From positions 1 through 64,000 of the IMG/VR virus record IMGVR_UViG_2883497546_000001: a stretch of DNA of 64,000 nucleotides, one strand, 5' to 3'. How positions within the stretch are numbered: the first letter of the stretch is position 1; every line of letters starts with the position of its first letter. Positions 1 through 64,000 of this stretch are shown piece after piece. Source of the stretch: a virus. Lineage: Duplodnaviria; Caudoviricetes. A program made the position numbers and the translations under genes. The notes under the pieces are model-generated. The model did not search any database. It worked only from the letters and a program-made list of their open reading frames with translations, and had not been told where the DNA came from.

Positions 1-477
1 TCACGGCTGCTTCGTCGCGGGTGACGGCGCTCCCGCGTGCGGTGATTGCGAATTCGATTGCGATTGCAGTCGCTCGCTGACCACATGCTTCACCACACTC
101 TTGAAATAGTCCGTCTGCTCCTGGATGAGGCCCGTCAGCGCCTCCATCCCCTCCGCCGTCCGGTTCAGTGCCTCCAGCATCCGCTGCTCCCTCGCCACCG
201 TCTCCGCCTTGTACTCCGCCTGTTGCTTCAGCAGCAGCCTCACCAGAAACACCACCGCAATGAGCAGCAGCACCTTCAGGCTCACATCCTCCCAGCCCTT
301 CGCTTCCGCCGCGATATCACCCACCATCGCAAACGTCGCCACCGCCGAAGCCATCATCGCCTTCCCATGCTCCTGCCAATCATGCAGCACCACCATCAAA
401 AGCATCCTCATACCCACCTCCATCTCCCAACACCTCGCATCCCAAACCAAGAACCAAGAACTGCTAAATCCCCTCAA
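1..477 (-). CDS. Putative holin-like membrane protein (true start probably ~410)
   Basis: One hydrophobic helix (VSLKVLLLIAVVFLVRLLL) followed by a coiled-coil; last gene of the tail/lysis-oriented - strand cluster. Confidence 0.4.
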   Translation of the reverse strand: MRGFSSSWFLVWDARCWEMEVGMRMLLMVVLHDWQEHGKAMMASAVATFAMVGDIAAEAKGWEDVSLKVLLLIAVVFLVRLLLKQQAEYKAETVAREQRMLEALNRTAEGMEALTGLIQEQTDYFKSVVKHVVSERLQSQSNSQSPHAGAPSPATKQP

Positions 478-887
478 GGCGTAATCGCCGGCGGCGCCAC
501 CGCAGGCACCACACCTGGCACCTCCGCAGAGATCGCCGCCCCGTGCGCCGCCGCATTTGCCTCAATCGCCTTACCCTTCAGCGCATTATCAGACACATGT
601 TTTCTGGTCGCTTCCTTCAGCGCCACCTGGTTCGTCGCCTCCGCTGCCTGGGTCGTCACCGCGCCAAAATAGCTCGTCGCCAGCGTGCCCACCATCACCG
701 CACCATCCCGGAAGGACTTCTCGTGGTTGTGAATCACCCCATACCCCTTCCGATATGCCCCCTTCCCCCCAAGGCTCGCATACGTCGCCGACCTCCCCTC
801 ACCATCACGCTCATGCATGACCACGCAAGATGACAGCGCCAGAAAGCTCGCGCCAAGCATCGCTCTCACGATGGGCCGGGCGTTCAC
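474..887 (-). CDS. Putative lipoprotein
   Basis: Signal peptide with lipobox LALSSC; GTG start overlaps the upstream stop (GTGA). Confidence 0.55.
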   Translation of the reverse strand: MNARPIVRAMLGASFLALSSCVVMHERDGEGRSATYASLGGKGAYRKGYGVIHNHEKSFRDGAVMVGTLATSYFGAVTTQAAEATNQVALKEATRKHVSDNALKGKAIEANAAAHGAAISAEVPGVVPAVAPPAITP

Positions 888-1054
888 TGCGCACCTCCCA
901 TGTTTGCTCCCATGATGCCGCCAGCCATGCTGCCCAATGCGGCCTGAATGGCTGCATCAAAAGGGTCTGCCTGCGTTGGAGCCAAGCTGCATGAGCTCAG
1001 CATGACGACGGCCATCGCCGCCAGGATTGGAATTCCTTTCATAGTTGGAATCAT
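884..1054 (-). CDS. Small lipoprotein, 56 aa (not in ORF track)
   Basis: Manual translation MIPTMKGIPILAAMAVVMLSSCSLAPTQADPFDAAIQAALGSMAGGIMGANMGGAQ*; lipobox LSSC; stop overlaps the next start. Confidence 0.55.
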   Translation of the reverse strand: MIPTMKGIPILAAMAVVMLSSCSLAPTQADPFDAAIQAALGSMAGGIMGANMGGAQ

Positions 1055-1176
1055 GACTCGTTATTTACGGTGAAGTGTTGGCTGGGCAGTCGCCCTCGTC
1101 TCGTACCAGCCTGAAGGGGCCAGCAATGCTTGAGCTTCCGCGATGAGCCGTCGCCTCTGTAGTGAATGGCCTCTCT

Positions 1177-1800
1177 CTAGAAACGAATTCTCTGGTGCGG
1201 CACCACCGTGGTGCCGTTGTTGGTAAGCGCCAGACCACGTTTCAGTTCGACCACATCTCGTACCAGTGGAGCATAGAAGACCAGCGCTTGGGGACGGAGG
1301 ACGGCCGCAGAATAGGTTTTCATATACGCAATCATCTCATCCCCGCCGAGCGCTGCTGACCACATCGCCACCTCGCTGATCTCACCATTGAAAAAGTAGG
1401 AGGTTCCCGGGCGCACCCCTATCGTCACATTCTTGGTGGGGTTGGAAACACTGGCGGAAGATGTGGATGAAGCGACAAGCGCACCGTTCACATAGAGCGA
1501 TAACGCCGTTCCACTTCGCGTGACCATCACCCGGTAGACTGCGTTCACTGGGATGACAGGACTGTCCATGAGGGCCGTTCCCACCCCAGCCCGCACTTTC
1601 GACTGATACACCTCAAGGTCAAAGTAGTTGCTGGGGTCAATACCCTTGGAAAAGACCACGCCTGATGAAGTCGCTGTGTAGTCCACCGTGTACGGATAAA
1701 TCGTCGCCGCCACGGAGAATGGCCCCGTGCCAAGCTCCAGCGCAGTGCTGGACGCCGCGGTGATGGATTGGGACGACGCCCTGGAAAATGCCCGCGCCAT
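1177..1800 (-). CDS. LamG/concanavalin A-like lectin domain protein (tail-associated)
   Basis: LYVNG...IG...FFNGEISEVAMWSAAL pattern; translationally coupled (TAATG) to tail fibre 1. Confidence 0.8.
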   Translation of the reverse strand: MARAFSRASSQSITAASSTALELGTGPFSVAATIYPYTVDYTATSSGVVFSKGIDPSNYFDLEVYQSKVRAGVGTALMDSPVIPVNAVYRVMVTRSGTALSLYVNGALVASSTSSASVSNPTKNVTIGVRPGTSYFFNGEISEVAMWSAALGGDEMIAYMKTYSAAVLRPQALVFYAPLVRDVVELKRGLALTNNGTTVVPHQRIRF

Positions 1801-3122: not shown

Positions 3123-3135
3123 AGGAAGGATGTTA

Positions 3136-6534: not shown

Positions 6535-6547
6535 GGCTATAGTATAG

Positions 6548-9895: not shown

Positions 9896-10750
9896 GGTCG
9901 TGTCTGAAAACCTGTATTTAGGACCTTAGCCAGTCAATCACTGCGGCGAAGTGAATAAGGGACAGGAAGTTCTGAGCAAGCTTGTCACGACGGGTGGCGG
10001 TGCAGCCCCATCGCTTCAAGCGGCAGAAGAAGTTCTCCACCCGGTATCGAGTGCGGTAAAGTTTCTTGGGGATGCGCACCTGATGTTTGCGGTTCTTCTT
10101 GGTGGGGAAGCACGGTTGATGACCCAAAGCGCGTAGTGTGTCGCGAAGTTTGTCATCATCAAAACCCTTGTCCCCCACGATGCGCAGATTACATCCCGCT
10201 CTGATTAGATTGACCACATGACGTCCTTCGTAAGCCTGTCCTTCAATGAGCGCTGTGTTGACCAAGCGACCTTGGGCATCGGTCAGAGCCATGAGCTTGG
10301 TGTTGCGTCCACCACGCGTCTTTCCCATGGCTTGTGTGGCAGCACCGCCAGCGGGATTGGCCGCGCATTGGTGCACCAGGATGTGAGTGCCATCCACCAA
10401 GCGCACCGGACCGCGGACTCGGCGCGTGAAGACCTCCAGGATTTTGAACCAAAGGCCCTCCTTGGCCCAGCGGCTGTGCCAGCCGTGAATGGTGGAGTAC
10501 GGCCCGAACCGCTCTGGCAGGTCACGCCAGGGCCCTGCGTTGCGCAGGCGATAGAACAGGGCGTCCAATAACAGGCCCAAGTCGGTGCGAGGTCGCCCGC
10601 CTTGATTTACCTGGGCACCACCATTTTTGTGAGCCGCTTTTTCAGCGGCTCCCACCAGAGAAATCGAACTTTCATGTCGTTCCTATGCTGCCACCAAATA
10701 TCCTCTGAGCCACGTTATTTAAGACTCATTTGAGGTTCTCAGACATGACC
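9896..10750 (-). mobile_element. IS5-family insertion sequence, 855 bp
   Basis: 18-bp TIRs GGTCGTGTCTGAAAACCT / GGTCATGTCTGAGAACCT; CTAG at both junctions (9893-9896, 10750-10753). Confidence 0.92.
9918..10655 (-). CDS. IS5-family DDE transposase
   Basis: GRP...WRDLPERFGPYSTI, LVDGT, GKTRGGRNTK, VGDKGFD, YRTRYRVENFFCRLK. Confidence 0.93.
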   Translation of the reverse strand: MGAAEKAAHKNGGAQVNQGGRPRTDLGLLLDALFYRLRNAGPWRDLPERFGPYSTIHGWHSRWAKEGLWFKILEVFTRRVRGPVRLVDGTHILVHQCAANPAGGAATQAMGKTRGGRNTKLMALTDAQGRLVNTALIEGQAYEGRHVVNLIRAGCNLRIVGDKGFDDDKLRDTLRALGHQPCFPTKKNRKHQVRIPKKLYRTRYRVENFFCRLKRWGCTATRRDKLAQNFLSLIHFAAVIDWLRS

Positions 10751-13700
10751 TAGGATTGTTCAGATGTGAAGAATCGCCTTGTGGACTTTGTTGTCGGGAT
10801 TCGGGGGCGATCGCATGCATCGCCACAAGAGGAGGTTGTGGTCCGTCTTTAATTGGCGATTGCAACGGAAGTCCGAATGCCAAGCGATTCTCTTCGGAAA
10901 TCTTCGCCGTTGCTCCTTGGCCTTCTTGAAATCTCCCATTTGTGCCAAAGGATGAAGCCCCGTTCAACAGTGTACGGGATGTTGTCATGGCGGTGACATC
11001 TGTGTCTTTACCTTTCGTCCCCTTCACCATCCCCCTCCGCGTCGCCCGGATAAGGCCACGCACGTGCGCATCAAGCACCTCTTGGGTCATCTCTTGGGAC
11101 GGAGCACCCAGCGGATTGAACGCACGCACCACCCAGTCGCGCATCGCCTGCCACATGCGCTGCATCACACTGCCGGGTTCTAGTTGCGCACGGCCCTCCA
11201 TGTTGCCCACCTGATGGGCAAACCACTCCAGCGCCAGCGCCTCCCTATTGCCGGTCAAGTGCGTGTAGCGCCCTTCAAGCTCTTGCATCTGCTCAGCGGG
11301 TATCGCCGCCGCCAGCTTCTTCCATTCCTCAGCAAACTTGCTGTCGCTCTCCCGCAACGCATCAAACCCATGGTGCCCCACCCGCTCATGCACCACCACG
11401 CGTGCAAGTGCCTGCGCCGCCGTCTCGCCCTCCAGCACACGCACATTGTCACGGAAGATCACCACCGTGCCATCACGCGGGTCATGGAATCCCTCTGCGT
11501 CCTGCATGATGTCCCAGTCCTCCGCGTGATAGCGTTGCTGTTCGGGACGACCTTGCAGACCATCCAGGGCCGCGTGGTTATCCACGACAAGCACGTTGCC
11601 ATAGATGGCACGCCCCTGCGCCGTGTTCTTGAGCCGCGCCTCCGCAGCAGTCGTCTCCGCCCGCGTTACACCGGTCCGCTTGACTCGCTCGGAGCCGGTG
11701 GCTTCGCCTAGGCTGTAGAAGAGGATGTTTGGACTTTGGTCTGTGCCACGTAGTCTAAATAACGGTGACTCAGATTGCGAAGTTGCTTCTCCTCCTCTGT
11801 GAGGTGGGTATGCGCCGAAAGATTTTGAAGGACGCGACCCAAGCTCCAGTCCCTCCAGCCTGACTTTTGCCAGGAGGGCCCGAGCAAGCGTTGTCTCACC
11901 AACTCCGCTACGTCCGGGGTCCAGTCCTGTAACGAGAGCTGCGTAATCGTCTTCAGAAAGTTGTCGCCAGTGAGATGGTCCTCCATCCGTGCCTCCTTGC
12001 TTTTGCCATACAGTATCCGTGTCTGGGTCATAACGCAAGTCCTCCAGCGACTTTCCTCGTGCCTGCATTTCACTGGCCACGTAGTTCATCTCCGCACGCA
12101 GTAGCAGATCCAGATTGTGTCTGAAGTCCACCTCCGACTTCTCCTCGCGCCATTCTGACCTTGCCGGTAGGAACTTGTTATTTCTGTCTTTGGCGTCATA
12201 TGGCTGCAAATGCCGTGAAGTGCGGTGCCGCAGCATGCTGGAGATCATGTGGCTGATGCGTCTTCGTTGGGCAATCGGAGTGACATCACGCCCATCTGGT
12301 ATGAACACCAGGCCGTTGTTGTGCGCATAGGTCTGCACTGCCTGGTAAATGAGGTCGCCTCCCTGCACCTTCTTGGCGACCTGACCCGCGCGATTACCCT
12401 GCGTGTCCACCCAGACCGTGCCATCAGTCATGACATTGACCACCACATCTCCGCCTTGGTTGATCTTTACGGTGTAGGACCGTGCAATGTCCTCGTTCAT
12501 GGGCACATTGGGCTCCACCAGCACATTTTCGGGCTCCTTCACTTTGGACGCCATCGTCTGCATGATGGCATTCAGATCCTTATCAGCCACCGCGGGCCCG
12601 CGCCGGAACGTGTCATCTGTAGCCAGTGACTGGAATGTCTCCGCCAGTACGTTGACGTCACTGCCGCCTTGCCGCTGCTGCGCATCAGCGCCACTGAAGC
12701 TCAGTCTCCCTTCAGCCCCCACACCCACCTCCGCTGGCATCTGCGTTTCCTTGCCACCACCATCATTTCCCATCACACCCTCCACCGCCAGCGAACCACC
12801 TCGCGAGATCACCTGCGAAGTGATCAGCGCCGTGATGTCATTAAACTCGGCGGACTGAACGCCTCACCCTCAAACACCGTGTGCCCCAGCGCCGCCACAT
12901 ACTCCTCCAGCACCTCCTCCGGCATCCCCTGAATCTCCATCTTCGCCAGCCGTTCATTCGCCCGCGCCAGGAACCTCGCTGCCTTCTCCGCACCCATCTT
13001 CTGCGCAAACGCCTGGAAGAGCCCCTCCTTCACTACCGCCTCCTGCTGCCCCGCACTCATCCGCCGGAACGCCTTCGCCACCCCCGGCGCCTTGATGAAG
13101 CCACCCAGCCTCTCTGAACCATTCTCCACCATCTGGTGCACAAACGCCCCTCGCAGCTTCTCCCACGGCGACCCCGGTTGATACCCCGCCTCCAGGCCAA
13201 GGATCACCTTCCCATCCGCACCCCGGTGCATCTCCAACCCCTCGAAGTGCAGGTCCGTAAAAGCCTTGCTCGCCACATGCGAGGCCGAGGCCGCCACCGT
13301 CTGCCCCGCCAGTCCCAGCGTCCCCAGCGCCAGGCGCGTCAGCAGCAGTTTCTCCACCTCATGACGGCCCTCCACCGTCGCCAGTCGACGCAGCCCCAGC
13401 CCCGCCAGATCCATCGCGCCCTTCTTCGTCGCCGTCGCCGCCCCGCCCGTCGTCCCCAGTTCCACACCGAACGACGCCGAGCTCACCGTGAAGTCCAGCA
13501 CCTGCCCCCACCATGAGTTCTCGCGCCTCATCTCCGTGAGTGCCTCCTGCAACATGATGGCGTCACCATCGGTCATCTGCTCACCCCGTTTCAGCTTCTC
13601 CGCGGAAGCCGCCACCGACGCCAGATAACCTATTTCCACAAACCCACCTACAAACGGCGCCCGTTCCTCCCAGAACCGCGGATTGAGCAGCAACTCCACC

Positions 13701-13804
13701 ACACCTTTCGGCAGCTCACTTGCCGAATCGAAGATCGCCTGACTCTCAAACGCCGCCATCAGTGCCTCATCATCATCCAGAATCGGCCCCAGTGCCGCCC
13801 GCAT
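10751..13804 (-). pseudogene. Cassette 4: second polyvalent/ejection-like protein fragment (frameshift near 12850, IS-interrupted)
   Basis: ORFs 12824-13804 and 10719-12812 abut in different frames; contains LARVVVHERVGHHG (zincin-like HExxGH); begins right after the boundary repeat. Confidence 0.6.
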
Positions 13805-14018
13805 CTTTTCAGGAAGCGGACCCGCGGGACGACAGGGTAGGGGAGTCTATCAGCGAGTACCTTTGGATTGCCCGGAGGGCCTTCGAATACCCACCCAGCT
13901 CACGCTCCACCTTCATCGGACTGACGTTGGGCCCCACAAGTAGTGGAGCGCTAATAGCCTGCAGCACGTCCTACCAGCCATCCCCGTTTTTTAGATGCAT
14001 GGCTGTGACCTGCTTCCA

Positions 14019-14573
14019 TTACTGATTTTCGATGAAGCTCAACAAGGCCTTGGCGTCTTTGTATTTCCACGGTGCCGGATTGCCAAACTGCACCACCTCA
14101 CCGCGCTCCTTCACTCCCGCCGCTTGCCGCACCGCCGCGTTCAGCCCTTCGGTCACCAGACCCGCCGGCAGCCGCGTCCCATCCTTGCGACGCCCCAGCA
14201 CATCCGCCGTCACAATCGCACTGATGGCCTCCGTCAGCGACCGCGGTGCCTTGTCCGCAGACCCCAGCACCTCCGCATCCGCCGCACTCAGGAACTTCTG
14301 CCCCGTTGCCTTCTCCGCCAGGCGCACCCACAGCAGCCCCTGCTCCCGTGTATAGCGACCGTTATCCAGTCCCGCCTTCCACCGGCCCTCAACCTGCTCC
14401 TCCACCGCAGTAAGCACATTGCCCCCGCGGAAGATGGTCGAGACCATCGTGCGCACATTATTACGTCGCTCCGCCCGATTGCTTCCCAGCACATGCCACG
14501 TCGCCGCCAGCGACTCCTCCCGCGTCATCCCACGCAGCTGCCCCGCCACCACCGCAGCGTCCGCCGCCTGTTC
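14019..14573 (-). pseudogene. Cassette 3: truncated anchor copy fused to an unrelated 20-aa tail
   Basis: Near-identical to ~22613-23106 up to VVQFG, then NPAPWKYKDAKALLSFIENQ*. Confidence 0.8.
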
Positions 14574-14708
14574 AGCAGACCTGTTGTAGATGCATCAGTG
14601 GAGCAGGGGAGTACCCATCTGGATAGCCCGGAGGGCCTTCGAATACCCACCCAGCTCACGCTCCACCTTCATCGGACTGACGTTTGGCGTTCTCCAGAGT
14701 CTGCGTTG

Positions 14709-17086
14709 TCACTTGGCAGCTGCTGCTGCGGCACGCTCCAGATTTTCACGAAGCGCTCCTTTCGGATGCAATACCTTCACATCGAAAGGAAGCAGGAGAT
14801 CGCCAACACGTACGGCATTCTCTTGGTGGAGATCTATCACGGCCGTATTGTCGGAAGCACGGTAGAAGGAGGATGGAGGCACGAGTTGCACAAAGCCTTG
14901 CTCTCTCATTGTCTTGCCGATGAAATTCGTATCTACGGAGTCTCCTCTGATCGTCGGTTGTGAGATGACGAGTCTTACACCGCCATCGCGATCAATATGC
15001 ACCCCATGAACCGCTATGTCATCGCCAAAAAGGGCATTGGCATTGGCTGCACTTTCAAGGTAGTTGATAATGGATGCCTCTTCCCGACGCATGTCCCACG
15101 TTCCTTGGTGGGCAACCGGCCACATCCCAAAATATTCACCCACACCGAGCGTCAACTTTATCACCCGATCCCCGTGAAGAAATACATGGTGTTCCATTTG
15201 ACCCACGTCTTCAGCACCATCGAGTGCCCATTCTGGTGGGAGACTTTGAATCAGGACTCTGCGTTCTCTTGCCCAGTCGACGAGCCATGCCCGCTCCCGT
15301 CGTCGCTGCGCAGTCCGAGCTTGCGGTCCTCCTGCCGGGCTTCCCGTAGGCGGCGCACTTGTGCCAAAAACTCTTCGGTAGTCATGGTGCGCTGTTTCGA
15401 GACGAGTTCGCGCCTCTCCTCGGGAGTGGCCAAATGAGGGACGCCGCGAAGGTGTGGTGGAGTGCTGCGAAGTTCCATAAAGCAAGTTGTCTATATCATT
15501 GATGGCGTTGTCTTGCGAGCGTTTCTTGTCCTCGTCATTTCCGTGATAGGCTTGCCATTGAGCCTGAAGTCGATCGTGAAGAGGTTTGTTTTCGTGTTCG
15601 AGGAATTCTGCGCTTGAATACCCTGCGGCCCGGGCCGCCTGATTGAGCCAAGCAGCAGGACTGAGGGAATGGGATTGACTTCCAGCCTCTTCAGTAGTAG
15701 TATTGTCTTGCGCTCCTGGTTGAGGTGTCTGTACCGCTTGAGACTGGGGCTGTCTCGGAATCCCGATAGCACCGGGACCCCCTTGAGGGGCTAGGCCGGA
15801 AACAGGTCGGACTCGTTCGACCAATGCGCCCCTGAATTGACGCTTGCTCAGTTCGGGGGCGTACTGCGTTACGAGGGCATATTGATCTTTGATGGCACCG
15901 TCCTCGACAATGACCATGTGAGTTCCCTCCGCGTAGTTGCGGAAGTAGAATGTCTCAGGTCCATTGGTCACTCGTACCTGCGCATCGGAGATGGTTTTCT
16001 CTACCGCTCCCACCCAATCCAACTTCTCGGGGCGCAGCGTGCGATCTTCCTGATTCTTGTCGATATTTTCTCCAATGAGATGAGCTGCGCGGTTCTCCAA
16101 CGGATCACCAAATGCTCCTCGCTTTTGGGGATTGGCTATGGTGACTTTGCTCCCCAAGGGTCTTCGACTTTGGGTGCCTTTCCTAACCAAGCGGCAACGT
16201 TCCGCACCAGTGTTTCCCAAGTTCCGCGCCTTTCCGCAAACACGGGGCGACTGTCTTTGAGCTTCGGCAGAAACTTCTTCGCAGAATCCCACGTGTGCCC
16301 CGTCTTCACCTCCTCCCACGACCCCGGCTTGTCCTGCCTCATCTTCGGCACCATGCCGAATGTCGCCACATCGATCTCCCCACGGCTTGCTGCCTCCTCC
16401 GTTATCGATTCGGAACGACTCGTATCATCGATAGCCGCACTTTCATTACCATTGCCTCTTCCATCCGTCCCCATCAAATCATCCAGGAACCCCTCATAGT
16501 CCGCCCCCAGCCGTCCCTCCGCTCGCGCCTTGTTCAGCGCCCGTGCCCGTGAAAACACCTGCCCAAACAACGCCCGCCACGCCCGCAGGAACTGCCCAAA
16601 CTGCACCACCTCACCGCGCTCCTTCACTCCCGCCGCTTGCCGCACCGCCGCGTTCAGCCCTTCGGTCACCAGACCCGCCGGCAGCCGCGTCCCATCCTTG
16701 CGACGCCCCAGCACATCCGCCGTCACAATCGCACTGATGGCCTCCGTCAGCGACCGCGGTGCCTTGTCCGCAGACCCCAGCACCTCCGCATCCGCCGCAC
16801 TCAGGAACTTCTGCCCCGTCGCCTTCTCCGCCAGCCGCACCCACGCCAGCCCCTGCTCGCGTGTATAGCGCCCGTTATCCAACCCCGACTTCCACCGTCC
16901 CTCAATCGGCTCCTCCACCGCCGTGAGCACATTCCCTCCGCGGAAGATGGTCGAGACCATCGTGCGCACATTATTGCGCCGCTCCGCACGATTGCTTCCC
17001 AGCACATGCCAGGTCGCCACCAGCGACTCCTCCCGCGTCATCCCGCGCAGCTGCCCTGCCACCACCGCAGCGTCCGCCGCTTGTTC
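14709..17086 (-). pseudogene. Cassette 2: anchor + shared domain B + alternative polyvalent-protein kinase tip (1-nt frameshift near 16146)
   Basis: GGTGACTTTGC here versus GGTGACTTTTGC in cassette 1; tip GQMEHHVF...VIKLT...NALFGDDI...VISQP...DLHQEN...PFD. Confidence 0.8.
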
Positions 17087-17212
17087 AGCGGAACTGCTAT
17101 ATATTTATCAGCAGGACAGTCTGCATAGCCTAGTGGGCCTTCGAACAACCACCTAGCTCACGCTCCACCTACACGGACCTGACGTTGGTGCGTTTAGACT
17201 TGCTAAGCTGTG

Positions 17213-17419
17213 CTACAGCATCGGAATAACACGAGCCCCGCCTTCATACACTTGGATACGAATGAACCCAGGTTCGATCTCCTTCGTCTTTTCAGTGGCT
17301 ATTGAGCACTCCCAAAGATCTTTGTCTTTGTCTTTGAAAAGAGCAATGTCAATCGCGTCAGAGGCTGCTACACCTGATTTGCTGAGCGCGATTTGTAATA
17401 TTTTGAAAGGGTCATTCAT
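17213..17419 (-). CDS. Putative immunity protein A (68 aa)
   Basis: ATGA overlap with the toxin stop; paralog of 9169-9375; lower GC. Confidence 0.7.
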   Translation of the reverse strand: MNDPFKILQIALSKSGVAASDAIDIALFKDKDKDLWECSIATEKTKEIEPGFIRIQVYEGGARVIPML

Positions 17420-19416
17420 ATTCCAAGCATGTATTTGAGTGTTCTAGGCCCGAACTTTCTATAAGCAATCAGAGCGTCTTCAATCGCACGATCAATTTCA
17501 AAATCAGTAAACCGGTAGTCATATTTGGCAATCTGATCAAAGACGTACATCTCTCGATCGAATGTGCGCATTTTACGGTAGCCTGCCAGGCCCAATTCAG
17601 CCCGTTGTCTAGCATGGCAGAGTTCGTGGAAGTAGTCAAGGTAAGTGGCATCCGAACCCAAGTGCATTTGGCAGGTTTCAGGATTGAATCCAGCGCGCGC
17701 TTCCTGGCTTTCAAGATAGGCGTCAGAGTTTCTCACCAACGTCCACTTGCTCTCTCCAGCAGGCGTAAGGTCGGCCATTCTCTTTTCGATTGCATCGAGC
17801 ATGCCTTCCGTGAGCAGGATTCCTTCATGCCTGCCTGTGCCTCGGAAAGGTGCAGTATCGATCTCCCCTGAAACCCGCGAGTTTCTTGCTGCCTTCAGCT
17901 TGTCTACCAGCTGGTTCAATTCTTCAGCCGAAGTGGGAGCAACAAAGGCAGCGCCGGGACTTCTAAGAGTTGTGCCGGGGTCTTCTGGGAGCAACGACAT
18001 CGATTGACTTCCAGCCTCTTCAGTAGTAGTATCCTCTTGCGCTCCTGGTTGAGGTGTCTGTACCGCTTGAGACTGGGGCTGTCTCGGAATCCCGATAGCA
18101 CCGGGACCCCCTTGAGGGGCTAGGCCGGCACCCGGTCGGATTCGTTCGACCAATGCGCCCCTGAATTGACGCTTGCTCAGTTCGGGGGCGTACTGCGTTA
18201 CGAGAGCATATTGATCTTTGATAGCGCCGTCCTCGACAACGACCATGTGAGTTCCCTCCGCATAGCTGCGGAAGTAGAAGGTCTCAGGCCCATTGGTGAC
18301 TCGCACTTGCGCATGTGAGATGGTTTTCTCGACCGCCCCAACCCAATCCAGTTTTTCGGGGCGCAGTGTACGATTTTCCTGAGCTTTGTCTACATTCTCA
18401 CCAATCAAGTGTGCGGCTCGATTCTCCAGTGGGTCACCAAACGCTCCTCGTCTTTGGGGATGGGCTATGGTGACTTTTGCCCCCCACGGGTCTTCGACCT
18501 TGGGTGCCTTTCCTAACCACGCAGCAACGTTCCGCACCACCGTCTCCCAAGTGCCGCGCCTTTCGGCAAACACAGGGCGACTGTCTTTGAGCTTCGGCAG
18601 GAACTTCTTTGCAGAATCCCACGTGTGCCCCGTCTTCACCTCCTCCCACGACCCCGGCTTGTCCTGCCTCATCTTCGGCACCATGCCGAATGTCGCCAGA
18701 TCGATCTCCCCACGGCTTGCTGCCTCCTCCGTTATCGATTCGGAACGACTCGTATCATCGATAGCCGCACTTTCATTACCATTGCCTCTTCCATCCGTCC
18801 CCATCAAATCATCCAGGAACCCCTCATAGTCCGCCCCCAGCCGTCCCTCCGCTCGCGCCCTGTTCAGTGCCCGTGCCCGTGAAAACACCTGCCCAAACAG
18901 CGCACGCCACGCCCGCAGGAACTGCCCAAACTGCACCACCTCACTTCGCTCCTTCACTCCCGCCGCTTGCCGCAACGCCGCGTTCAGCCCTTCGGTCACC
19001 AGACCCGCCGGCAGCTTCGTCCCATCCTTGCGACGCCCCAGCACATCCGCCGTCACAATCGCACTGATGGCCTCCGTCAGCGACCGCGGTGCCTTATCCG
19101 CAGACCCCAGCACCACCTCATCCGCATCCGCCAGGAACTTCTGCCCCGTCGCCTTCTCCGCCAGCCGCACCCACGCCAGCCCCTGCTCGCGTGTATAGCG
19201 ACCGTTATCCAGCCCGGACTTCCACCGGCCCTCAATCGGTTCCTCCACCGCCGTGAGCACATTGCCCCCGCGGAAGATGGTCGAGACCATCGTGCGCACG
19301 TTGTTGCGCCGCTCCGCACGATTGCTTCCCAACACATGCCACGTCGCCGCCAGCGACTCCTCCCGCGTCATTCCACGCAGTTGCCCCGCCACCACCGCCG
19401 CGTCCGCCGCCTGCAC
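17416..19416 (-). CDS. Cassette 1: anchor + domain B + HExxH metallopeptidase toxin tip (probably silent, no genuine start)
   Basis: Near-identical to 22418-23103 and similar to 21017-21746; tip DATYLDYFHELCHARQRAELGLAGY. Confidence 0.8.
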   Translation of the reverse strand: MQAADAAVVAGQLRGMTREESLAATWHVLGSNRAERRNNVRTMVSTIFRGGNVLTAVEEPIEGRWKSGLDNGRYTREQGLAWVRLAEKATGQKFLADADEVVLGSADKAPRSLTEAISAIVTADVLGRRKDGTKLPAGLVTEGLNAALRQAAGVKERSEVVQFGQFLRAWRALFGQVFSRARALNRARAEGRLGADYEGFLDDLMGTDGRGNGNESAAIDDTSRSESITEEAASRGEIDLATFGMVPKMRQDKPGSWEEVKTGHTWDSAKKFLPKLKDSRPVFAERRGTWETVVRNVAAWLGKAPKVEDPWGAKVTIAHPQRRGAFGDPLENRAAHLIGENVDKAQENRTLRPEKLDWVGAVEKTISHAQVRVTNGPETFYFRSYAEGTHMVVVEDGAIKDQYALVTQYAPELSKRQFRGALVERIRPGAGLAPQGGPGAIGIPRQPQSQAVQTPQPGAQEDTTTEEAGSQSMSLLPEDPGTTLRSPGAAFVAPTSAEELNQLVDKLKAARNSRVSGEIDTAPFRGTGRHEGILLTEGMLDAIEKRMADLTPAGESKWTLVRNSDAYLESQEARAGFNPETCQMHLGSDATYLDYFHELCHARQRAELGLAGYRKMRTFDREMYVFDQIAKYDYRFTDFEIDRAIEDALIAYRKFGPRTLKYMLGI

Positions 19417-32684: not shown

Positions 32685-33140
32685 TCACCCCAGCGTATAC
32701 CCCACATGCCACACCTGGTCATGCGTCGCCAGGTTCGTCACCGTCGTCGGCGTAAACGTCACCCACAGCTCCTCCGGAAACTTGTAGGGCGTCAGAAACG
32801 CATCCCCCTTCGTTCCCGCCTCGCTGAAGGCCTTCCTCCCCGCTGTCCCACCCAGCGCCAGCGCCGCACCATAGCGATCATCATCATTCTCGTCGCCAAT
32901 CTTCCCCGTCAGCGCATCCCCCGGATCACCGTGGTCCACCGAGCACAGCGCCGGAATCACCCGCGCCCCCTTCGGCAGCTTCGCCAGGAAGATCACATCA
33001 GACGTCGTCAGCGCCGTCACCGCAATCTTCACATCCACATAACGCACATCCCCGCCAAACGCCCGGAGACTCGGCGCCTCCGAAAAGTCACTCTCCGCCG
33101 CCAGTTGCCCCGCCCCCAAATCCGTATATTTATTCGCCAT
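32685..33140 (-). CDS. Capsid decoration/cement protein
   Basis: DVIFLAKLPKGARVI...IGD..DDDRY; immediately downstream of the capsid gene. Confidence 0.7.
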   Translation of the reverse strand: MANKYTDLGAGQLAAESDFSEAPSLRAFGGDVRYVDVKIAVTALTTSDVIFLAKLPKGARVIPALCSVDHGDPGDALTGKIGDENDDDRYGAALALGGTAGRKAFSEAGTKGDAFLTPYKFPEELWVTFTPTTVTNLATHDQVWHVGYTLG

Positions 33141-33273
33141 ATTCTCTCTTTAGATAAAAAGTTTAAATTCGTGCTCCTGCTCCTGCTCTTCCTCTTGCTC
33201 ACCTCAGTGGAGCCAGACTCACGGTGCCCATCTCCACCAGGTCAGATCAAATCAGATCAGTCGCCCCCCCTCG

Positions 33274-34170
33274 TTAAGGCGATTCATCGCAGTACACCCG
33301 CACCACCTTCTCATTCTCCGAGCGCACCGCACCCAGGCGACCCACGGAGCGAATCTGCTTCGCATGCCGCTTGTCCGGGCGCACATCAATGTAGCTGTTG
33401 CGCGCACCCTCACCCAGCTTGATGGCCGACTTGTGCCACGCAAAGCATGACCGCACATCCGTGGCCACATTGCGCGCCAGCCGCTGTGTCGGAATCCACG
33501 TGAATCCCATCCAGTAGCTGATCTTCCCATCCTTCAGCGCCATCAGGTCACTGAAGTCACGGCTCGTCGCCTCCGTCAGCGCCAGCAGATTATCCAGCTG
33601 CTTCGCCCCATAGCAGAAAAAGCGCTCACTCTCCGGCACCTCATTCACATTCAGGATGCGCGCCGCCTCGCGAATCTTCCCAAACGTCAGCCCGCTGTTC
33701 GCCGGCGTCCCACTCGGCACATAGTCCACCGCAATCGACTGGCCCGCAGGGAAGGGGTCCGTCGTCGTGCCCTCCTCACCGATATAGCGCGTCGCATCGA
33801 AGGCCGAAATGACAATGTCATCCACCTTGCGATTGTACGCCATCGCCATATTGCGCACCTCATCCGAGTCCGGCAACACAATCTGCCCCAGCTGGCGTTC
33901 ATCATCCTCATCGAAGCTGATCACCTTCTCGAACTTGCGCGCATACAGCCAGTACTTCTCCCCTGAGGTATCACCCTCCGGCGTATCGCCCTTCCGCGTC
34001 GTCACCTCATCCATCTCATAGTCATTCAGCAGATTGAATGACTTCCGCTTGCCCGTCAGGTTGCCACCCGGCGATACCGCCAGGCGCAGCCGGCAGTCCA
34101 TCTGTTGAGCCACATGCGTCCAGTTCCTCTCGAACTCCGTCGGGTAAAACTGCGTAATATCCAAAGACAT
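33274..34170 (-). CDS. Major capsid protein
   Basis: EF..NW.HVAQQM..RLR, AMAYNRKVDDIVI, L.DG.I..WMGF.WI..RL, GAVR.E..KVV. Confidence 0.88.
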   Translation of the reverse strand: MSLDITQFYPTEFERNWTHVAQQMDCRLRLAVSPGGNLTGKRKSFNLLNDYEMDEVTTRKGDTPEGDTSGEKYWLYARKFEKVISFDEDDERQLGQIVLPDSDEVRNMAMAYNRKVDDIVISAFDATRYIGEEGTTTDPFPAGQSIAVDYVPSGTPANSGLTFGKIREAARILNVNEVPESERFFCYGAKQLDNLLALTEATSRDFSDLMALKDGKISYWMGFTWIPTQRLARNVATDVRSCFAWHKSAIKLGEGARNSYIDVRPDKRHAKQIRSVGRLGAVRSENEKVVRVYCDESP

Positions 34171-43314: not shown

Positions 43315-43388
<74 letters not shown>

Positions 43389-46417: not shown

Positions 46418-46819
46418 TTACTGTCCACCCCCACCCAAAAGCGTCCCACCCCCCAGCACCTTCTCACTCCCCTGAGACGCATACGCATTTGTATACCCAG
46501 ACCCCCATCCATACCCGCCCGTCTCACCCGCCAGCACCGTCTTCCTCAGACCCTTCCGGCGATTCAAATCCCGCCTCGTCTGCTCATCCGCCTGCGCCAC
46601 CTCCGCACTCGTCGCCGTCGGGGGTGGGGGAGCCGGCGGTGGCGGAGCCGGGGTCGGCGGAATGTGAATCTTCGGCATCTTCGGGAACTTGATGGGCTCC
46701 TGCTTCGGAGCCGGAGGCGGAGCCTGACTCCTGCCACCCCCGAAGTTGAACCGCGTCAGCCTCCCACCCGGCTGTGCCTTCGCATAGTTCGTATAGTCGT
46801 ATCCGTCGATCATTCTCAT
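46418..46819 (-). CDS. Small Pro-rich pre-portal virion protein (gp7.3-like position)
   Basis: Pro-rich; RRKGLRKTVLAG...TLLG. Confidence 0.65.
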   Translation of the reverse strand: MRMIDGYDYTNYAKAQPGGRLTRFNFGGGRSQAPPPAPKQEPIKFPKMPKIHIPPTPAPPPPAPPPPTATSAEVAQADEQTRRDLNRRKGLRKTVLAGETGGYGWGSGYTNAYASQGSEKVLGGGTLLGGGGQ

Positions 46820-46844
46820 AAGCCTGCTCTGCTCTACTCCCTGG

Positions 46845-47315
46845 TTATCCTCCTAAAATCGTATCGCTCCCATACGGCTGCCCAAACGAGCGACCTCCAC
46901 CCGACAGCAGCGTCCTCTTCTTCTTCAATCCCCCTGCGGTCCCCGCAGTACTCGCAGCCTGCGGCGGCGCTTGCGTGTACCCCGCTGCCGCCGTCGCCGC
47001 CCCTGAAGCGCCGCTGCCACCACCACCACCGATGCTTGCAGATTGTGTTTTCTGTCCCGACACCGCCGCCTTGGGCTTCGCCCCATACGGCCCGTCACCA
47101 TACCCCACCTTGAAGTCCAGCTCCTTGGTCTTGTTCCCAGTGTTGGACTGATGTATCGCCAGCGCCATCATCCGGACAAAGTCCGGTTGATTCTGGATCC
47201 GCTTCGGTTCCCCTGGAATCGTCTTCGGCACCTTCGCGCCACCGCCATGATTCAGCCTGTCGAGCCTGCCATCCGGCCGGAAAGAAGGCATGGTAATAAA
47301 GCCATCAACATTCAT
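46845..47315 (-). CDS. Small pre-portal virion protein, first gene of the head operon
   Basis: GLKKKRTLLSGG...TILGG resembles the downstream gene; start MNVDG. Confidence 0.6.
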   Translation of the reverse strand: MNVDGFITMPSFRPDGRLDRLNHGGGAKVPKTIPGEPKRIQNQPDFVRMMALAIHQSNTGNKTKELDFKVGYGDGPYGAKPKAAVSGQKTQSASIGGGGGSGASGAATAAAGYTQAPPQAASTAGTAGGLKKKRTLLSGGGRSFGQPYGSDTILGG

Positions 47316-47328
47316 ACACCGTCCACAA

Positions 47329-47344
47329 TGTACTTTCTGGTACC
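47329..47344 (-). promoter_or_regulatory. Virion-regulon motif copy (GGTACCAGAAAGTACA)
   Basis: Identical 16-mer to 6548-6563; 29 nt upstream of the ATG at 47315. Confidence 0.65.
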
Positions 47345-47509
47345 CGCCCATTCTAAGCCCCTCCCATCCCATGTCCAATAAAATCTTCTACACCGCATCC
47401 CGACACAACCCCTCAGCTTCCTCCACTTTGCATTTTTCACCTTCCATTTTTCATTTTGCATTCATCGCACAACACTCCACTCAGCCCGACCAAACCAAGA
47501 ACAAGAACC

Positions 47510-47821
47510 TCATAACTCCTTCCTCACCGGAACCATCACATCCCACCACCATCCCTCATACCCACGCATCACCCCCTTCGCAAAATCCTTCCCCGCCAGC
47601 CAGTCATACGGCGCGCGAAACGTCTTCACCCAACCCTCCGGCCTCGCCCCTCGCTTCGCATACGCCATCGAAAGCGGCCACCCCGTCGTCACACAGATCG
47701 ACACCGGCGGCACAATGATCAAATACGCCATCACCACCAGCACCCCGAGCCACACCCATTTCTTGAGGCTCGACGACTCATACGGATCCTTCATCCACGC
47801 TTCCGGCTTGTTCTTCTTCAT
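47510..47821 (-). CDS. Small membrane protein, family W (1)
   Basis: TM helix with Y.....P, followed by W...F.AP..WL...Y..WW. Confidence 0.65.
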   Translation of the reverse strand: MKKNKPEAWMKDPYESSSLKKWVWLGVLVVMAYLIIVPPVSICVTTGWPLSMAYAKRGARPEGWVKTFRAPYDWLAGKDFAKGVMRGYEGWWWDVMVPVRKEL

Positions 47822-48622
47822 ACAGGTCTCAAATCTGGGTGTCGCACCGACCAAAAGCAACTCCCACACCCATCTATCTGCATCCTGCTTTATCTCACCT
47901 CCGAAAAACGTCTCGTGGGCCACGCCGCACCCAGGGCAACAAAGCACCTCGCCACACCCACCTCGCGCGCAGCACCTTGGAGTGCGTGCTCCCGCCTCGC
48001 ACATGAGCGTCAATTCAAGAAAACCGTACTTGGGTGAACAGGGAACCAGTGCACGGCCCATCAACTCAACGTACCAGTTCGCTATGCGTCTTGGAGTGCG
48101 GTGGCACAGGCCTCCCTTGGGGCCGCGACACCGCTTTGAACGAAGGGAAGTGGCCCGGATGTCGGAGAACTTCGGCGGAATCCAGCATCCAAGTTTCCCC
48201 GGGGGACTGTGTCCTGGAAATTAGATCATGATTTCGATCCATCATGCTCATGCTCTCCGTTCAAAGCGATATCGCATCTCGCGGGCCGGGACTTGCCGCA
48301 CGCAGTCCACGACGCGGATGTCCGATGCCCGATGTCGGAGGAGTGTGGCACCACAAGACCTCCGCACAACATGCATACCAGATTCAGGTGAGACATCACA
48401 AGGCGTGCCCTCCCCACAACGATGGCACTGACAAGATCCTCAGTCGCGGAGCGACGGCCGTATCTTAGCCCGCCTTTCAAGGCCGGGTAAAGCCCCAATC
48501 ACACCAGCGTCGCGGAGCGACACCCGAACCACGACCTCCCCCTCGATCCGCCAGCTTGGCAACGCTTCAAGCAAGCGGTTGATTCCACGTTTCAATTGAG
48601 TGACCATGAAATCTAGTATCTA

Positions 48623-60343: not shown

Positions 60344-60934
60344 ATGTCCCGCCGCACGAAGCTCATCATCGCCGCGCTCTTCCTCGTGCTGCTCGCCGTT
60401 CCCGCAGCCTACGTCGCACTCACCTGGCATCCCGCATTCCCGCTGCGCTTCCATCTTGAAAGCATCGACTCGGAACCGTTGGAAGAAGACCCTCGCTATC
60501 GGGGGCTGCGCGTGCGTGTTGAAAACACCAGCCCGATCCCGGTGCATATTTGCGGAGGTATGCTGTATACGAACTTTGGAATACCTGTCTTTGGCGGTCC
60601 TGAAGGGCTCCTTCTGCCACTCGAGTTTAGAGACGGCATTCCATCGAGGAACCCTGATGAGCCGGTGATCGTTCCCGCACACGGAGAACTCCACATTCGC
60701 GGTGCCCTGGGCGCCAAACTGACGCAGATCCCGCAGGGAGGGGAAATTTCCGTGCAATGCACGTGGGAAACCGCAACACGTGCCGGGGCTGGACGTGCGG
60801 TGAATTGGATCAGATACAGCTGTCCGCAATGGGAGACAGGGCGGCTTCCCATGATAGAGCCCCTGAGAACGACAGTGCCGCTGGAGACCAAAGGTCACGC
60901 ACCAGCACCACCGCAAGAACCATCCGCACCCTGA
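60344..60934 (+). CDS. MSRR-family membrane-anchored protein (5)
   Basis: Conserved N-terminus; VRVENTSPIPV. Confidence 0.8.
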   Translation: MSRRTKLIIAALFLVLLAVPAAYVALTWHPAFPLRFHLESIDSEPLEEDPRYRGLRVRVENTSPIPVHICGGMLYTNFGIPVFGGPEGLLLPLEFRDGIPSRNPDEPVIVPAHGELHIRGALGAKLTQIPQGGEISVQCTWETATRAGAGRAVNWIRYSCPQWETGRLPMIEPLRTTVPLETKGHAPAPPQEPSAP

Positions 60935-60981
60935 TTTGAAATCCCCAATCACAAATCAAAAATCATAAATAGCGCTTCCCC

Positions 60982-62234: not shown

Positions 62235-62369
62235 AGATAAGGTCTGGCACCGGCACTCATCCCATTTTGCATTTTTCATGCATCACTTTTCACTTTGCAT
62301 TTCTACGGCCCGCACCAGCGCATTGATTTGAAATCTCCAATCTCAAATCATCAATCATAAATAGCCCCG

Positions 62370-62975
62370 ATGTCCCGCCGCACGAAGCTCATCATCCTCG
62401 CGCTCTTCCTCGTGTTGCTCGCCATCCCCGCGGCATACGTCGCCCTCACCTGGCATCCACAGAATCCCCTCCACTTCCACCTGGAGCGCATCCATCAGGC
62501 CTCGGAGCTGGACCACAAGGGCGGCCGCAGGCTCCGCATCAGAGTTGAAAATTCCAGTCACGCGGAAATCCACCTCTTCAAGGTCCTCATGGAAGAGCAG
62601 GGGAACAGTCCGGACTGGGTGGACCATTCTGGGTTTATCAACGCAGAATCTCAGCGCGAGCAGGGGATTCAAGTGCAGGAGCATGCCATCATCATCCCTC
62701 CCCGGAGCACCATCCACCTCACCGGATATCTTCGTCCTGAGCTGCTGTCCTCCGCACAGCAGGGCCGCATCGCTGCCCACTACTACTGGAATTCCCAAAT
62801 CATCCGAAAGTCGGAGCGGGGAATGCGTTGGTTCAATCAACACAGTCCACGGATGCTGCGGAATCTCATCTTCCTGCCTGAGTACCTCGTGGATGAGGCT
62901 CCACTGGAATCCGCCCCAGGTGTGGAGATTCCCCCAACTCCACCACCACCCGCCACCACTCCCACCCGTGAGTGA
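62370..62975 (+). CDS. MSRR-family membrane-anchored protein (8)
   Basis: Conserved N-terminus; IRVENSSHAEI. Confidence 0.8.
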   Translation: MSRRTKLIILALFLVLLAIPAAYVALTWHPQNPLHFHLERIHQASELDHKGGRRLRIRVENSSHAEIHLFKVLMEEQGNSPDWVDHSGFINAESQREQGIQVQEHAIIIPPRSTIHLTGYLRPELLSSAQQGRIAAHYYWNSQIIRKSERGMRWFNQHSPRMLRNLIFLPEYLVDEAPLESAPGVEIPPTPPPPATTPTRE

Positions 62976-63030
62976 TTTGAAATCTCCAATCATAAATCAT
63001 AAATCATAAATCATAAATAGCGTCCCTCCA

Positions 63031-63582
63031 ATGTCCCGCCGCACGAAGCTCATCATCCTCGCAGTCTTCCTCGTGCTGCTCGCCATCCCCGCGGCATACG
63101 TCGCGCTCACCTGGAGTCCGAAGGATCCCTTGCGCGTCCGTTTGATCAGTATGGATATGCCGGGGGAGCAGGATCCATTCAAACAAATGACCATGCGCAT
63201 GGAGTTGGAAAATACCAGTACGGTCCCCATTTTCGTTGGCGATGTGGTATTCCGCGCCCGGCGGAAAACCGGCGTCAATGGCGATCCTATGTTCCAGAGA
63301 ATCTACCTTTTCTCACCGGACGGTTCGTCGAACTGGTTCCACACCATCGCACCGCGCAGCACGCAACTTTTCTCTGCAGATGTCACCGGGTACGACCAGG
63401 CGACGGTGGACATGGACAGCGCCGAGATGGTGTACCTTTACGAAAGTGATACGGAACATCGCATCAATGAACTCTGGAGTCGCGGCATCGAGCGCGTCCC
63501 TTATTGGATCACAAAACACTTGCCCGAGCCATTGAGCGACAGTGACCAGGCTGCGGCATCCATCGAGCCCCCACCTCACTAG
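63031..63582 (+). CDS. MSRR-family membrane-anchored protein (9)
   Basis: Conserved N-terminus; MELENTSTVPI. Confidence 0.8.
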   Translation: MSRRTKLIILAVFLVLLAIPAAYVALTWSPKDPLRVRLISMDMPGEQDPFKQMTMRMELENTSTVPIFVGDVVFRARRKTGVNGDPMFQRIYLFSPDGSSNWFHTIAPRSTQLFSADVTGYDQATVDMDSAEMVYLYESDTEHRINELWSRGIERVPYWITKHLPEPLSDSDQAAASIEPPPH

Positions 63583-63641
63583 AAGAGGCGAAGCGTTCCT
63601 GGCAATAGCTGTAGATAGTATCGTGCCAATCTTCTCCCCCC

Positions 63642-63749
63642 ATGTCCCGCCGCGCAAAGCTCATCCTCCTCGCGCTCTTCCTCGTGCTGCTCGCCATCCC
63701 GGTGACATATATCGCCCTCACCTGGCATCCGAACCTAGCGGTCGAGTAG
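63642..63749 (+). pseudogene. MSRR-family stub: constant N-terminus only (35 aa)
   Basis: MSRRAKLILLALFLVLLAIPVTYIALTWHPNLAVE*. Confidence 0.75.
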
Positions 63750-63815
63750 CATCAGAGGGATGAACACTTTGCATTTTTCATTCATCACTTTTCACTTTGC
63801 ATTCCCCTTCGCGAA

Positions 63816-64000
63816 ATGAGCTCTACCGTCCTCTCCCAAGCCCTCGCCCTCTACGACAGGGCAGGGGAGACCCAGACCGGGACCCCAACACAATCCCGCA
63901 CCTTCGAGGAGGACCTCGCCGCCTTCATCCACACCGGCCGCGTCTACATCACGCCCACCTGCGTCCTCTTCGCCAAAGCCGTCCCATCTCACCGCGAGTA
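63816..64000 (+). CDS. Hypothetical protein, probably phage-derived (runs off window)
   Basis: MSSTVLSQALALY...RTFEEDLAAFIHTGRVYITPTCVLFAK; resembles small genes that follow terL in podovirus-like elements. Confidence 0.5.
   Translation, partial: MSSTVLSQALALYDRAGETQTGTPTQSRTFEEDLAAFIHTGRVYITPTCVLFAKAVPSHRE

Follow-up and report, generated by a model that had tools for sequence, protein, structure and literature searches.

To our knowledge, few domesticated phage particles are known (the gene transfer agents, GTAs, represented by RcGTA and BaGTA, as well as PBSX and the tailocins), intermediate stages are rarely seen, and almost no phage biology exists for the Verrucomicrobial phylum. We analysed a stretch of 64,000 nucleotides, referred to here as the window, from the IMG/VR virus record IMGVR_UViG_2883497546_000001 (positions 1 to 64,000). 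The window is located at G000:C1:2551192-2615191 in the chromosome of a member of Verrucomicrobiaceae (a single contig of 7.96 Mb with 59.9% G+C). It holds the greater part of a ~98-kb prophage-derived element, whose ends lie at about -1.5 kb and +96.5 kb in window coordinates. We favour, with moderate confidence, the explanation that this element is a grounded, rearranged and inflated descendant of a ~40-kb phage, with functional particle genes but unable to move as a unit.

RcGTA-type clusters are located in extreme peaks of GC skew and prefer G-rich codons (Koppenhofer, Tomasch and Lang, PMC9836097). They resemble the element in being chromosomally fixed, phage-derived sets of particle genes without an integrase at an extreme of GC skew. 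RcGTA is siphovirus-like, about 15 kb long, devoid of a replication module, conserved across orders, distant from repeats and placed on the leading strand, whereas the element is podovirus-like, keeps a replication module, is patchily distributed and is rich in repeats. All genes of RcGTA clusters run in one direction, whereas the element has genes on both strands. In Bartonella, a known exception that keeps a phage origin among GTAs, a phage-derived run-off origin is coupled to the GTA (PMC2697382, PMC3610622). By analogy, a phage-derived origin located by particle genes and arrays of variable surface-protein genes could amplify and preferentially package the neighbouring DNA here as well, although the virion type and the replication proteins of the element are unrelated to those of Bartonella. 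Lateral transduction, in which prophages replicate and package before excision, may offer a further parallel.

Among cultured phages, the portals nearest to that of the element belong to BPP-1 (Rauchvirus) and to HTVC010P-type pelagiphages, at 28-30% identity. BPP-1 shares the succession of terS, terL, two small genes, portal, protease/scaffold, capsid, tail tubes A and B, internal proteins, giant gene and fibres. It differs in having a genome of 42.5 kb with its own polymerase, primase, helicase, cI/cro, integrase, excisionase and retroelement cassette, and no strand skew, while the element is ~98 kb long, integrase-less, of DUF1376/DnaC type, extremely skewed, and has an inverted terminase. 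The toxin cassettes of the element have a described counterpart in Verrucomicrobium spinosum, where a kinase-bearing polyvalent protein is located beside cassette-like open reading frames (ORFs) with alternative domains and has been compared to polymorphic toxins (Iyer et al. 2017, PMC5512222).

Particle genes of a resident element

The virion and packaging ORFs extend over 56 kb (1177-56867), and all are open, with profile matches running end to end. The first-pass annotation, made from the letters of the window, had described full-length ORFs spread over more than 55 kb with terS and terL facing away from the portal, and our searches agree. A complete T7/BPP-1-type set of virion genes occupies the minus strand, in an order collinear with Bordetella phage BPP-1 from portal to fibre; terS and terL are located on the plus strand and diverge from the portal. 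An Rfam search of the window gave no match, and a search of sequencing runs listed no isolate run and no RNA run, none of the runs containing more than 0.22 of the words searched.

The element occurs at the corresponding locus of a sister species (G003) as well, where inverted terminase block, gene array and flanks are all the same. In both species a P-type ATPase gene and an ECF sigma gene border it on one side, and the initiator/loader pair followed by further host genes on the other. Since locus, inversion, array and flanks are shared, the derived, integrase-less and inflated state predates the split of the two copies, and all divergence between G000, the genome holding the window, and G003 arose in that state. 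The ratios of non-synonymous to synonymous divergence (dN/dS) between the two are 0.093 for the portal, 0.098 for the capsid, 0.082 for terL and 0.22 for both tube B and the scaffold; the initiator and loader genes have ratios of 0.20 and 0.32. None of a dozen structural genes contains a stop codon or a frameshift in either species. Residence under purifying selection had been proposed in the first-pass annotation, and these figures provide the strongest support for that proposal, of particle genes kept by selection in a resident element. Silent divergence of 0.3-0.5 accumulated in the derived state, with dN/dS near 0.09 and uninterrupted reading frames, is hard to reconcile with a decaying and functionless cryptic prophage whose genes are intact for want of time. 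We regard this reading as very improbable, even though it would suit the missing integrase, the inversion, the insertion sequence (IS) that truncates a toxin tip, the miniature inverted-repeat transposable elements (MITEs) and the inserted islands. The element is resident and selected, not a recent ordinary prophage, as the first-pass annotation had maintained; three of the arguments it offered for this view had to be corrected.

To judge from six-frame searches of the genome, the element has no recognisable means of excision. No tyrosine integrase (PF00589) was found within 320 kb, the nearest match being 322 kb away, and serine recombinases (PF00239) had no match in the whole genome. All rve matches in the genome were IS copies, none of them in the element, and HTH_3, S24 and DnaB had no match in or near it. 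No tRNA gene was found nearby and no attachment-like repeat at the element ends. A perfect 51-bp direct repeat (-2180 and +93854) was considered as an attachment site and rejected, being the end of a MITE with 89 copies in the genome. The reported lack of integrase, repressor and helicase was borne out as far as integrase, HTH_3, S24 and DnaB are concerned, but a DnaC-like helicase loader and a DUF1376 initiator are present. Inspection of the flanks, suggested along with that observation, revealed no attachment sites and did reveal this replication module just right of the window, at 94.7-96.5 kb. The statement that the locus has no phage life-cycle genes is not supported, since the initiator, the loader and a candidate endolysin flank the window.

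The loader and DUF1376 genes (L003:10708-12505) are located some 31 kb to the right of the window, straight after the gene array, and E. coli DnaC is the best solved relative of the loader. The compact relative L156 has DUF1376 and DnaB genes, in this order, directly upstream of its terminase genes, and the DUF1376/DnaC-like module is therefore the lineage's own. On the left, the DUF1353 and TIGR02594 genes occupy the position of the BPP-1 lysis genes. Homologues of the latter carry CHAP, NlpC/P60 or peptidoglycan-binding domains and are often found on contigs of 40-47 kb; the TIGR02594/CHAP-like enzyme is a candidate endolysin and probably provides the lysis function. The element carries genes for replication (DUF1376/DnaC-like) and packaging (terS, terL) alongside this candidate lysis gene.

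At ~98 kb, the element is about 2.5 times as long as its complete relatives of 38-41 kb, while its capsid protein and that of the compact relatives L157/L158 share 87% identity over 298 of 298 amino acids, without indels. Because of this combination, self-packaging as a unit is unlikely. The presence and conservation of replication, packaging, virion and candidate lysis genes would also be expected of a large temperate phage that is still self-transmissible, with an unrecognised mode of integration, a larger head and independent entry at the same site in both species. The many unannotated ORFs leave room for it, the low synonymous divergence (dS) of the core, about half the host median, would agree with a later arrival or an exchange, and related inflated elements occur in other genomes of the host family, one of them with a tyrosine integrase 24 kb from the portal. 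We find this reading improbable in view of the capsid identity with ~40-kb relatives, the lack of any common class of integrase in six-frame searches, of a tRNA gene and of attachment-like repeats other than MITE ends, the host-like dS of flanking host genes and accessory parts, and the IS and MITE insertions.

According to the explanation we favour, the ancestor would have been a compact podophage of 38-40 kb with a BPP-1/T7-type virion, a lambdoid DUF1376 initiator and a helicase or loader. In its descendants the terS-terL-X block would have been inverted, about 40 tandem genes for small membrane proteins and several cargo islands inserted, and no integrase left; the phage-derived core would also have acquired its extreme strand-wise bias in base composition. 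Two species with this derived layout still have all of the virion genes, the terminase, initiator, DnaC-like loader and candidate endolysin, intact and under purifying selection. On induction, the element would replicate in place with the DnaB and polymerase of the host; particles with ~40-kb heads would be filled by the headful mechanism, starting at a pac site near terS, and the cell would lyse. Lacking excision and too big for its own head, the element would be a fixed chromosomal locus and not a self-transmitting phage.

Several observations weigh against this account. The dS of the structural genes (0.30-0.51 between G000 and G003) amounts to about half the host value, also after correction for composition: the median dS of host orthologues is 0.85 (interquartile range 0.64-1.05, n = 137), just 2% of them lie below 0.41, and among host genes whose dN is equally low the median is 0.75. 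Low core dS could stem from exchange between the two species after their split, which is unexpected for a strictly immobile element. Flanking, replication and accessory genes diverge at host-level dS. Across the host family, the portal family turned up in 11 of the 101 genomes sampled; in the largest genus, 4 of 61 species have it, and one genome holds three mutually divergent copies. Core dS and the patchy portal family together weigh against simple vertical domestication, and the clade-wide conservation and co-divergence with the host implied by the first-pass annotation are not supported by them. The comparison covers one adequately complete congener, G003; the element was not found in the other congener, the assembly of which is 59% complete. 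About half of the ORFs of the element have no family match, so that a novel recombinase, repressor or holin is possible among them, and many small ORFs at 45-54 kb and 96.6-103 kb had no Pfam or PHROGs match. The capsid is taken to fit ~40 kb on the basis of its identity to, and the genome sizes of, the relatives, and particle production, in-place replication and headful packaging are deduced from sequence. Finally, the array between terL and the initiator is weakly skewed, which misfits a purely positional or local-replication cause of the strand bias.

Compact relatives and the strand bias of the phage core

The closest relatives that public assemblies contain are compact, with portal identities of 85%, 81%, 79% and 64%. 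The four (L154, L156, L157 and L158) resemble the element in portal (64-85%), capsid (70-87%) and tube B (63-81%) sequences, and differ in being tightly packed on one strand and in having no gene array, no inversion and no 7- or 8-bp arrays. Their abutting genes, on contigs that reach 36.9 and 39.7 kb, follow the order terS, terL, X, (p177), Y, portal, scaffold, capsid, tube A, tube B, internal, giant. More distant relatives in IMG/VR measure 38-41 kb and are rated complete, one of them with terminal repeats and a tyrosine integrase; they were found by a portal alignment query, a single-protein portal pattern scan of viral contigs having given nothing. Two species of another genus (G046:C1 5.22-5.30 Mb and G065:C3 1-60 kb) have a scrambled relative in common, which they share at 94.7% nucleotide identity around the portal. 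In it the portal adjoins a fibre gene and polyvalent proteins are located ~35 kb upstream or more; BLAST found no capsid or terL.

In G000, the plus strand carries gene X together with terL, and the minus strand carries gene Y and p177 together with the portal. The divergent terminase is explained by a single inversion of the block at 54.1-94.6 kb: terS and terL form the left end of a ~40-kb block that is inverted relative to the portal. No inverted repeats are left at the breakpoints.

The phage core displays an extreme bias at silent sites. At four-fold sites the portal (minus strand) has 85% G and terL (plus strand) 85% C, against host averages of 41% C and 34% G. At two-fold sites, minus-strand genes prefer G over A (0.91-0.95 vs 0.70 in the host) and T over C, and plus-strand genes show the reverse. 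As two- and four-fold sites shift strand-wise, the bottom strand is rich in G+T whatever the direction of the genes. The skew between G and C at third codon positions (GC3 skew), computed on the top strand, is -0.60 in terL, -0.68 in the ORF at 50346-51560, -0.66 in the portal, -0.59 in tube B and -0.74 in the scaffold; values of +0.10 for the acyltransferase, +0.19 for the IS5 transposase and +0.08 for the kinase tip show that these genes lack it. The C-richness of the top strand in both gene directions, and its absence from the acyltransferase and the effector tips, had been seen by eye in the first-pass annotation. On the coding strand, core genes have GC3 skews of +0.4 to +0.74 or -0.6 to -0.68, and host genes average -0.06 +/- 0.14 (1st-99th percentile -0.38 to +0.28). 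The same annotation had taken the skew as host-like and as a sign of amelioration; it is about ten times as strong as that of the host, and it marks the core as a derived trait. Weak or no skew is found in the cargo, namely the acyltransferase, the IS, the kinase tip, the gene array and part of the giant gene.

The sign of the skew is that of the 380-kb segment in which the element resides. This segment (2.54-2.92 Mb; -11 kb to about +370 kb in window coordinates) has the GC3 strand signature of the opposite replichore, with the element at its left edge, where a MITE (-8889 to -8650) adjoins it; the segment is presumably inverted within the host chromosome. Two interpretations were discarded on these grounds. 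A skew opposite in sign to that of the host holds for the replichore trend only, not for the surrounding segment, and an apparent spill-over of skew into the left flank (P-type ATPase, ECF sigma) as a trace of run-off replication fits the norm of the 380-kb segment.

The composition of the compact relatives with portals 79-85% identical is host-like (four-fold C 0.42-0.48, G 0.28-0.36), and the idea of skew as a general trait of the lineage was dropped for this reason. Extreme skew of the opposite polarity is found in a few distant relatives from IMG/VR. In one such relative (L096, L097; portal 34% identical, 32-kb contig), four-fold C reaches 90% in the portal and GC3 skew is -0.8 to -0.9; no microsatellites were seen in it. 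Where terL is co-oriented with the portal in relatives, it is G-rich (G027, G001; GC3 skew +0.43) or neutral (L158), and in G000 and G003 it is C-rich. This difference implies that the bias was written onto the DNA strand after the inversion. Judged against the relatives, the skew is derived, and it characterises the phage core rather than the cargo.

The compact relatives, used as an outgroup, carry the unfavoured base at 32% of the sites that differ between G000 and G003; the expectation is 22% if the favoured base is always ancestral and 52% if the unfavoured one is. By this rough estimate about one third of the silent changes since the split lead to the favoured base, compared with ~8% under host-like change and 50% at equilibrium. 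The pressure behind the skew seems to have continued after the split, perhaps weakening. As to its cause, our best guess is a strongly asymmetric regime, of replication or of exposure as single strand, that is peculiar to the phage core. The pattern is classical for deamination of a strand that is often single-stranded. A link between skew and type of replication was tried and abandoned: DUF1376 and DNA_pol_A were found in none of five IMG/VR relatives, and the DUF1376 search came back empty in every control genome as well.

Gene array, tandem repeats and toxin cassettes

The features of the element are collected in the table below. Downstream of terL, a tandem array comprises 42 of the 50 matches of the paralog profile hidden Markov model (HMM) in the genome (56955-94621), the other eight being weak and located elsewhere. 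The encoded proteins are predicted by structure modelling to have a beta-sandwich ectodomain held by a membrane anchor. Two ORFs on the minus strand, 60320-60952 and 62355-62993, lie antisense to array units and are shadows of them. The units diverge fast between G000 and G003, with 28-65% identity and dN/dS of 0.42-0.47.

Eight of the 12 perfect heptamer arrays of the genome (at least five copies) are found in the element. They directly follow the stops of structural genes (tube B, portal) or mark junctions (terS-terL, array-loader). In related elements from other genera, arrays of 7 or 8 bp with other units occupy similar positions; none were found in the compact relatives. The window contains 18 copies of an AT-rich heptad motif, CACTTTSCATTTTSCATTC (28442-63804; 0.05 expected), for example at 31402-31441, 47438-47463, 57208-57247, 58981-59020 and 63765-63804. 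All but two copies share one strand orientation irrespective of the direction of the adjacent gene, and 11 of 18 genome copies (at most two mismatches) fall within the element. The heptamer arrays, the gene family and the heptad motif belong to the element and not to the host, contrary to the earlier assignment of microsatellites and gene family to host types. The host-wide repeats of the element are limited to an IS5 copy and the MITE. The latter has 51-bp ends and 89 copies concentrated at 2.2-2.8 Mb; it is host-wide, as supposed, but only one MITE end (49680-49728) is located inside the window, where MITEs had been reported from the gaps between genes.

The giant gene, which encodes 1920 amino acids, occupies the slot of bbp10 in BPP-1, and the compact relative L154 also has a gene for 1920 amino acids there. 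The five cassette-zone ORFs downstream of it (10719..19416) form one paralog family. The Tox-MPTase4 cassette (17416-19416) matches the giant gene at 93% identity over 229 amino acids and 68% over 307, so that a main gene is accompanied by partial-repeat cassettes with differing effector ends, Tox-MPTase4 and Kinase-PolyVal. Such an arrangement is known in kind. It differs from that of V. spinosum in being located in the ejection-protein slot of a complete virion module and in having two tips each with a partner ORF of 68 amino acids. The two partners are 40% identical to each other and match no family. An orphan Tox-MPTase4 tip with its partner was observed directly beside the IS5-family transposase (9376-10655), and this cassette was probably cut by the IS insertion.

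The cargo island between the capsid and scaffold genes includes a SIR2-like gene with a weak SIR2_2 match. The site measures 6.3 kb in G000 vs 1.3 kb in G003, where the island is absent. Recent compositional drift of the island was considered and given up, its nearest relatives being just 39-40% identical and too distant for a test. Islands beside the capsid gene recur in G022:C35 (local 51.7-72.8 kb, ~21 kb) and in G027:C131 (19.2-23.7 kb, ~4.5 kb), in the latter with ORFs on the opposite strand, as in G000. This suggests that the capsid-adjacent site is an insertion hot spot.

Table. Genes and repeats of the element, in window coordinates unless a locus is named (aa, amino acids)
Feature	Position	Strand	Evidence or remark
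DUF1353 gene, left of window	L001:19509-19979	-	
TIGR02594/CHAP-like candidate endolysin	L001:18563-19042 (-1437 to -958)	-	
LamG-like gene	1177-1800	-	Pfam Laminin_G_3 8.5e-18
Fibre 1	1800-3188	-	paralogous to fibre 2
Acyltransferase, antisense between fibres	3498-5279	+	Pfam Acyl_transf_3 3.5e-19; without skew
Fibre 2 with Collar domain	5266-6582	-	Pfam Collar 7.3e-25
Partner ORF (68 aa) of orphan tip	9169-9375	-	40% identical to ORF 17213-17419
Orphan Tox-MPTase4 tip	9376-9816	-	Pfam Tox-MPTase4 2e-14
IS5-family transposase	9918-10655	-	Pfam DUF4096/DDE_Tnp_1; at least 7 IS copies in genome
LPD37 protein	10719-12812	-	Pfam; cassette zone downstream of giant gene
Cassette-zone ORFs	12824-13804, 14019-14552	-	
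Kinase-tip cassette	14709-16319	-	Pfam
Partner ORF (68 aa) of Tox-MPTase4 cassette	17213-17419	-	
Tox-MPTase4 cassette	17416-19416	-	repeats stretches of giant gene
Giant polyvalent internal (ejection) protein, 1920 aa	19549-25311	-	MuF_C, LPD3, Kinase-PolyVal (Pfam)
Internal virion proteins (588, 308, 158 aa)	25315-28465	-	phrog_418; orthologues in compact relatives
Tail tubular protein B	28817-31264	-	phrog_376 1.9e-191, positions 9-709 of 712
Tail tubular protein A	31588-32190	-	phrog_394 1.3e-52
Head-proximal protein (151 aa)	within 32685..34170	-	beside capsid gene
Major capsid protein	33274-34170	-	PF19821 4.2e-67, positions 2-293 of 293
Cargo island: SIR2-like gene, 173-aa ORF, 1182-aa ORF	34812-40859	+	antisense, between capsid and scaffold genes
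Scaffold/protease-like gene	40864-41757	-	phrog_3742 and phrog_458 cover this gene region
Small gene	42384-42776	-	
15-mer array, 24 copies	43521-43880		
Portal	43868-45568	-	PF12236 3.9e-100, positions 3-487 of 489
Gene Y	46418-46819	-	upstream of portal in compact relatives (tblastn, blastp)
p177	46845-47378	-	upstream of portal in compact relatives (tblastn, blastp)
p184	within 46418..48064	-	
terS	54124-54870	+	phrog_51
terL	55275-56867	+	phrog_2472, phrog_26724, phrog_2 for terminase region
Tandem array, ~40 paralogs of ~183 aa	56955-94621 (in window to 64000)	+	paralog HMM; Atlas model
Gene X (conserved phage gene), embedded in gene array	63816-64217	+	homologues between terL and portal in relatives
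DnaC-like helicase loader	94708-95433	-	Pfam IstB_IS21; PDB DnaC 6qel 1.8e-8
DUF1376 initiator	95420-96505	-	Pfam DUF1376; PHROG 'primosomal protein'
Perfect heptamer arrays in window	28690-28794, 32230-32292, 43316-43357, 43521-43880, 46185-46247, 54901-54956		units e.g. CACCGCT, TCCTCAG, GTAAGCA
Perfect heptamer arrays outside window	L001:13268-13365, L003:10630-10706		

Possible routes to a domesticated particle

Intact and selected virion genes in a non-excising, probably over-sized element that is common to two species might also indicate a particle domesticated in the service of the host and under its regulation. It would be either GTA-like, packaging chromosomal DNA and perhaps favouring the adjacent gene array, or resemble a bacteriocin, injecting the toxin-tipped polyvalent ejection protein into neighbouring cells. 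RcGTA-type clusters, too, are located in extreme GC-skew peaks, with a choice of G over C in codons (PMC9836097), Bartonella pairs a phage-derived run-off origin with a GTA (PMC2697382, PMC3610622), and the toxin-tip cassettes with their small partner genes resemble polymorphic toxin loci (PMC5512222). The partner genes, however, may protect the producer cell during assembly rather than its siblings, and taken alone they are no proof of a bacteriocin-like role. The inverted terminase block faces the array, and the 40.5 kb from terS to the array end in G000 correspond to about one headful; we rejected this fit because the block from terS to the loader measures ~55 kb in G003. The element retains its own initiator, loader and candidate endolysin, its portal family is patchy and diverse in copies with core dS below that of the host, no host regulator is linked to it, and the heptad motif is mostly private to it. 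We therefore consider a host-serving particle rather unlikely as the overall explanation, although a GTA-like role is possible for a grounded phage descendant of the kind we favour.

A more specific conjecture, which we rate as improbable, is that the element is a podovirus-built Verrucomicrobial counterpart of the Bartonella pairing of run-off replication with a GTA. In this scheme a lambdoid origin would fire in place, the terminase would package rightward into the ~38-kb array of ~40 variable membrane-protein genes, and the repeated one-directional cycle of replication and transfer would cause the approximately tenfold strand bias. If this were true, extreme strand-wise skew together with intergenic 7-8-bp arrays would be a genomic signature of particles switched to a transfer device.

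The compact, ancestor-like phages with portals 81-85% identical can be compared directly with a fixed and inflated derivative, and the two species indicate that selection continued to act on the particle genes once the change had occurred. Because opposite-strand genes follow the bias here, it can be a property of the strand and not a choice of codons, which turns the unexplained correlation between GTAs and skew into a testable question of mutation and replication. The gene array, the toxin-tip cassettes and the position-conserved microsatellites offer further experimental handles. The element appears to represent an early, or else an alternative, path to particle domestication.

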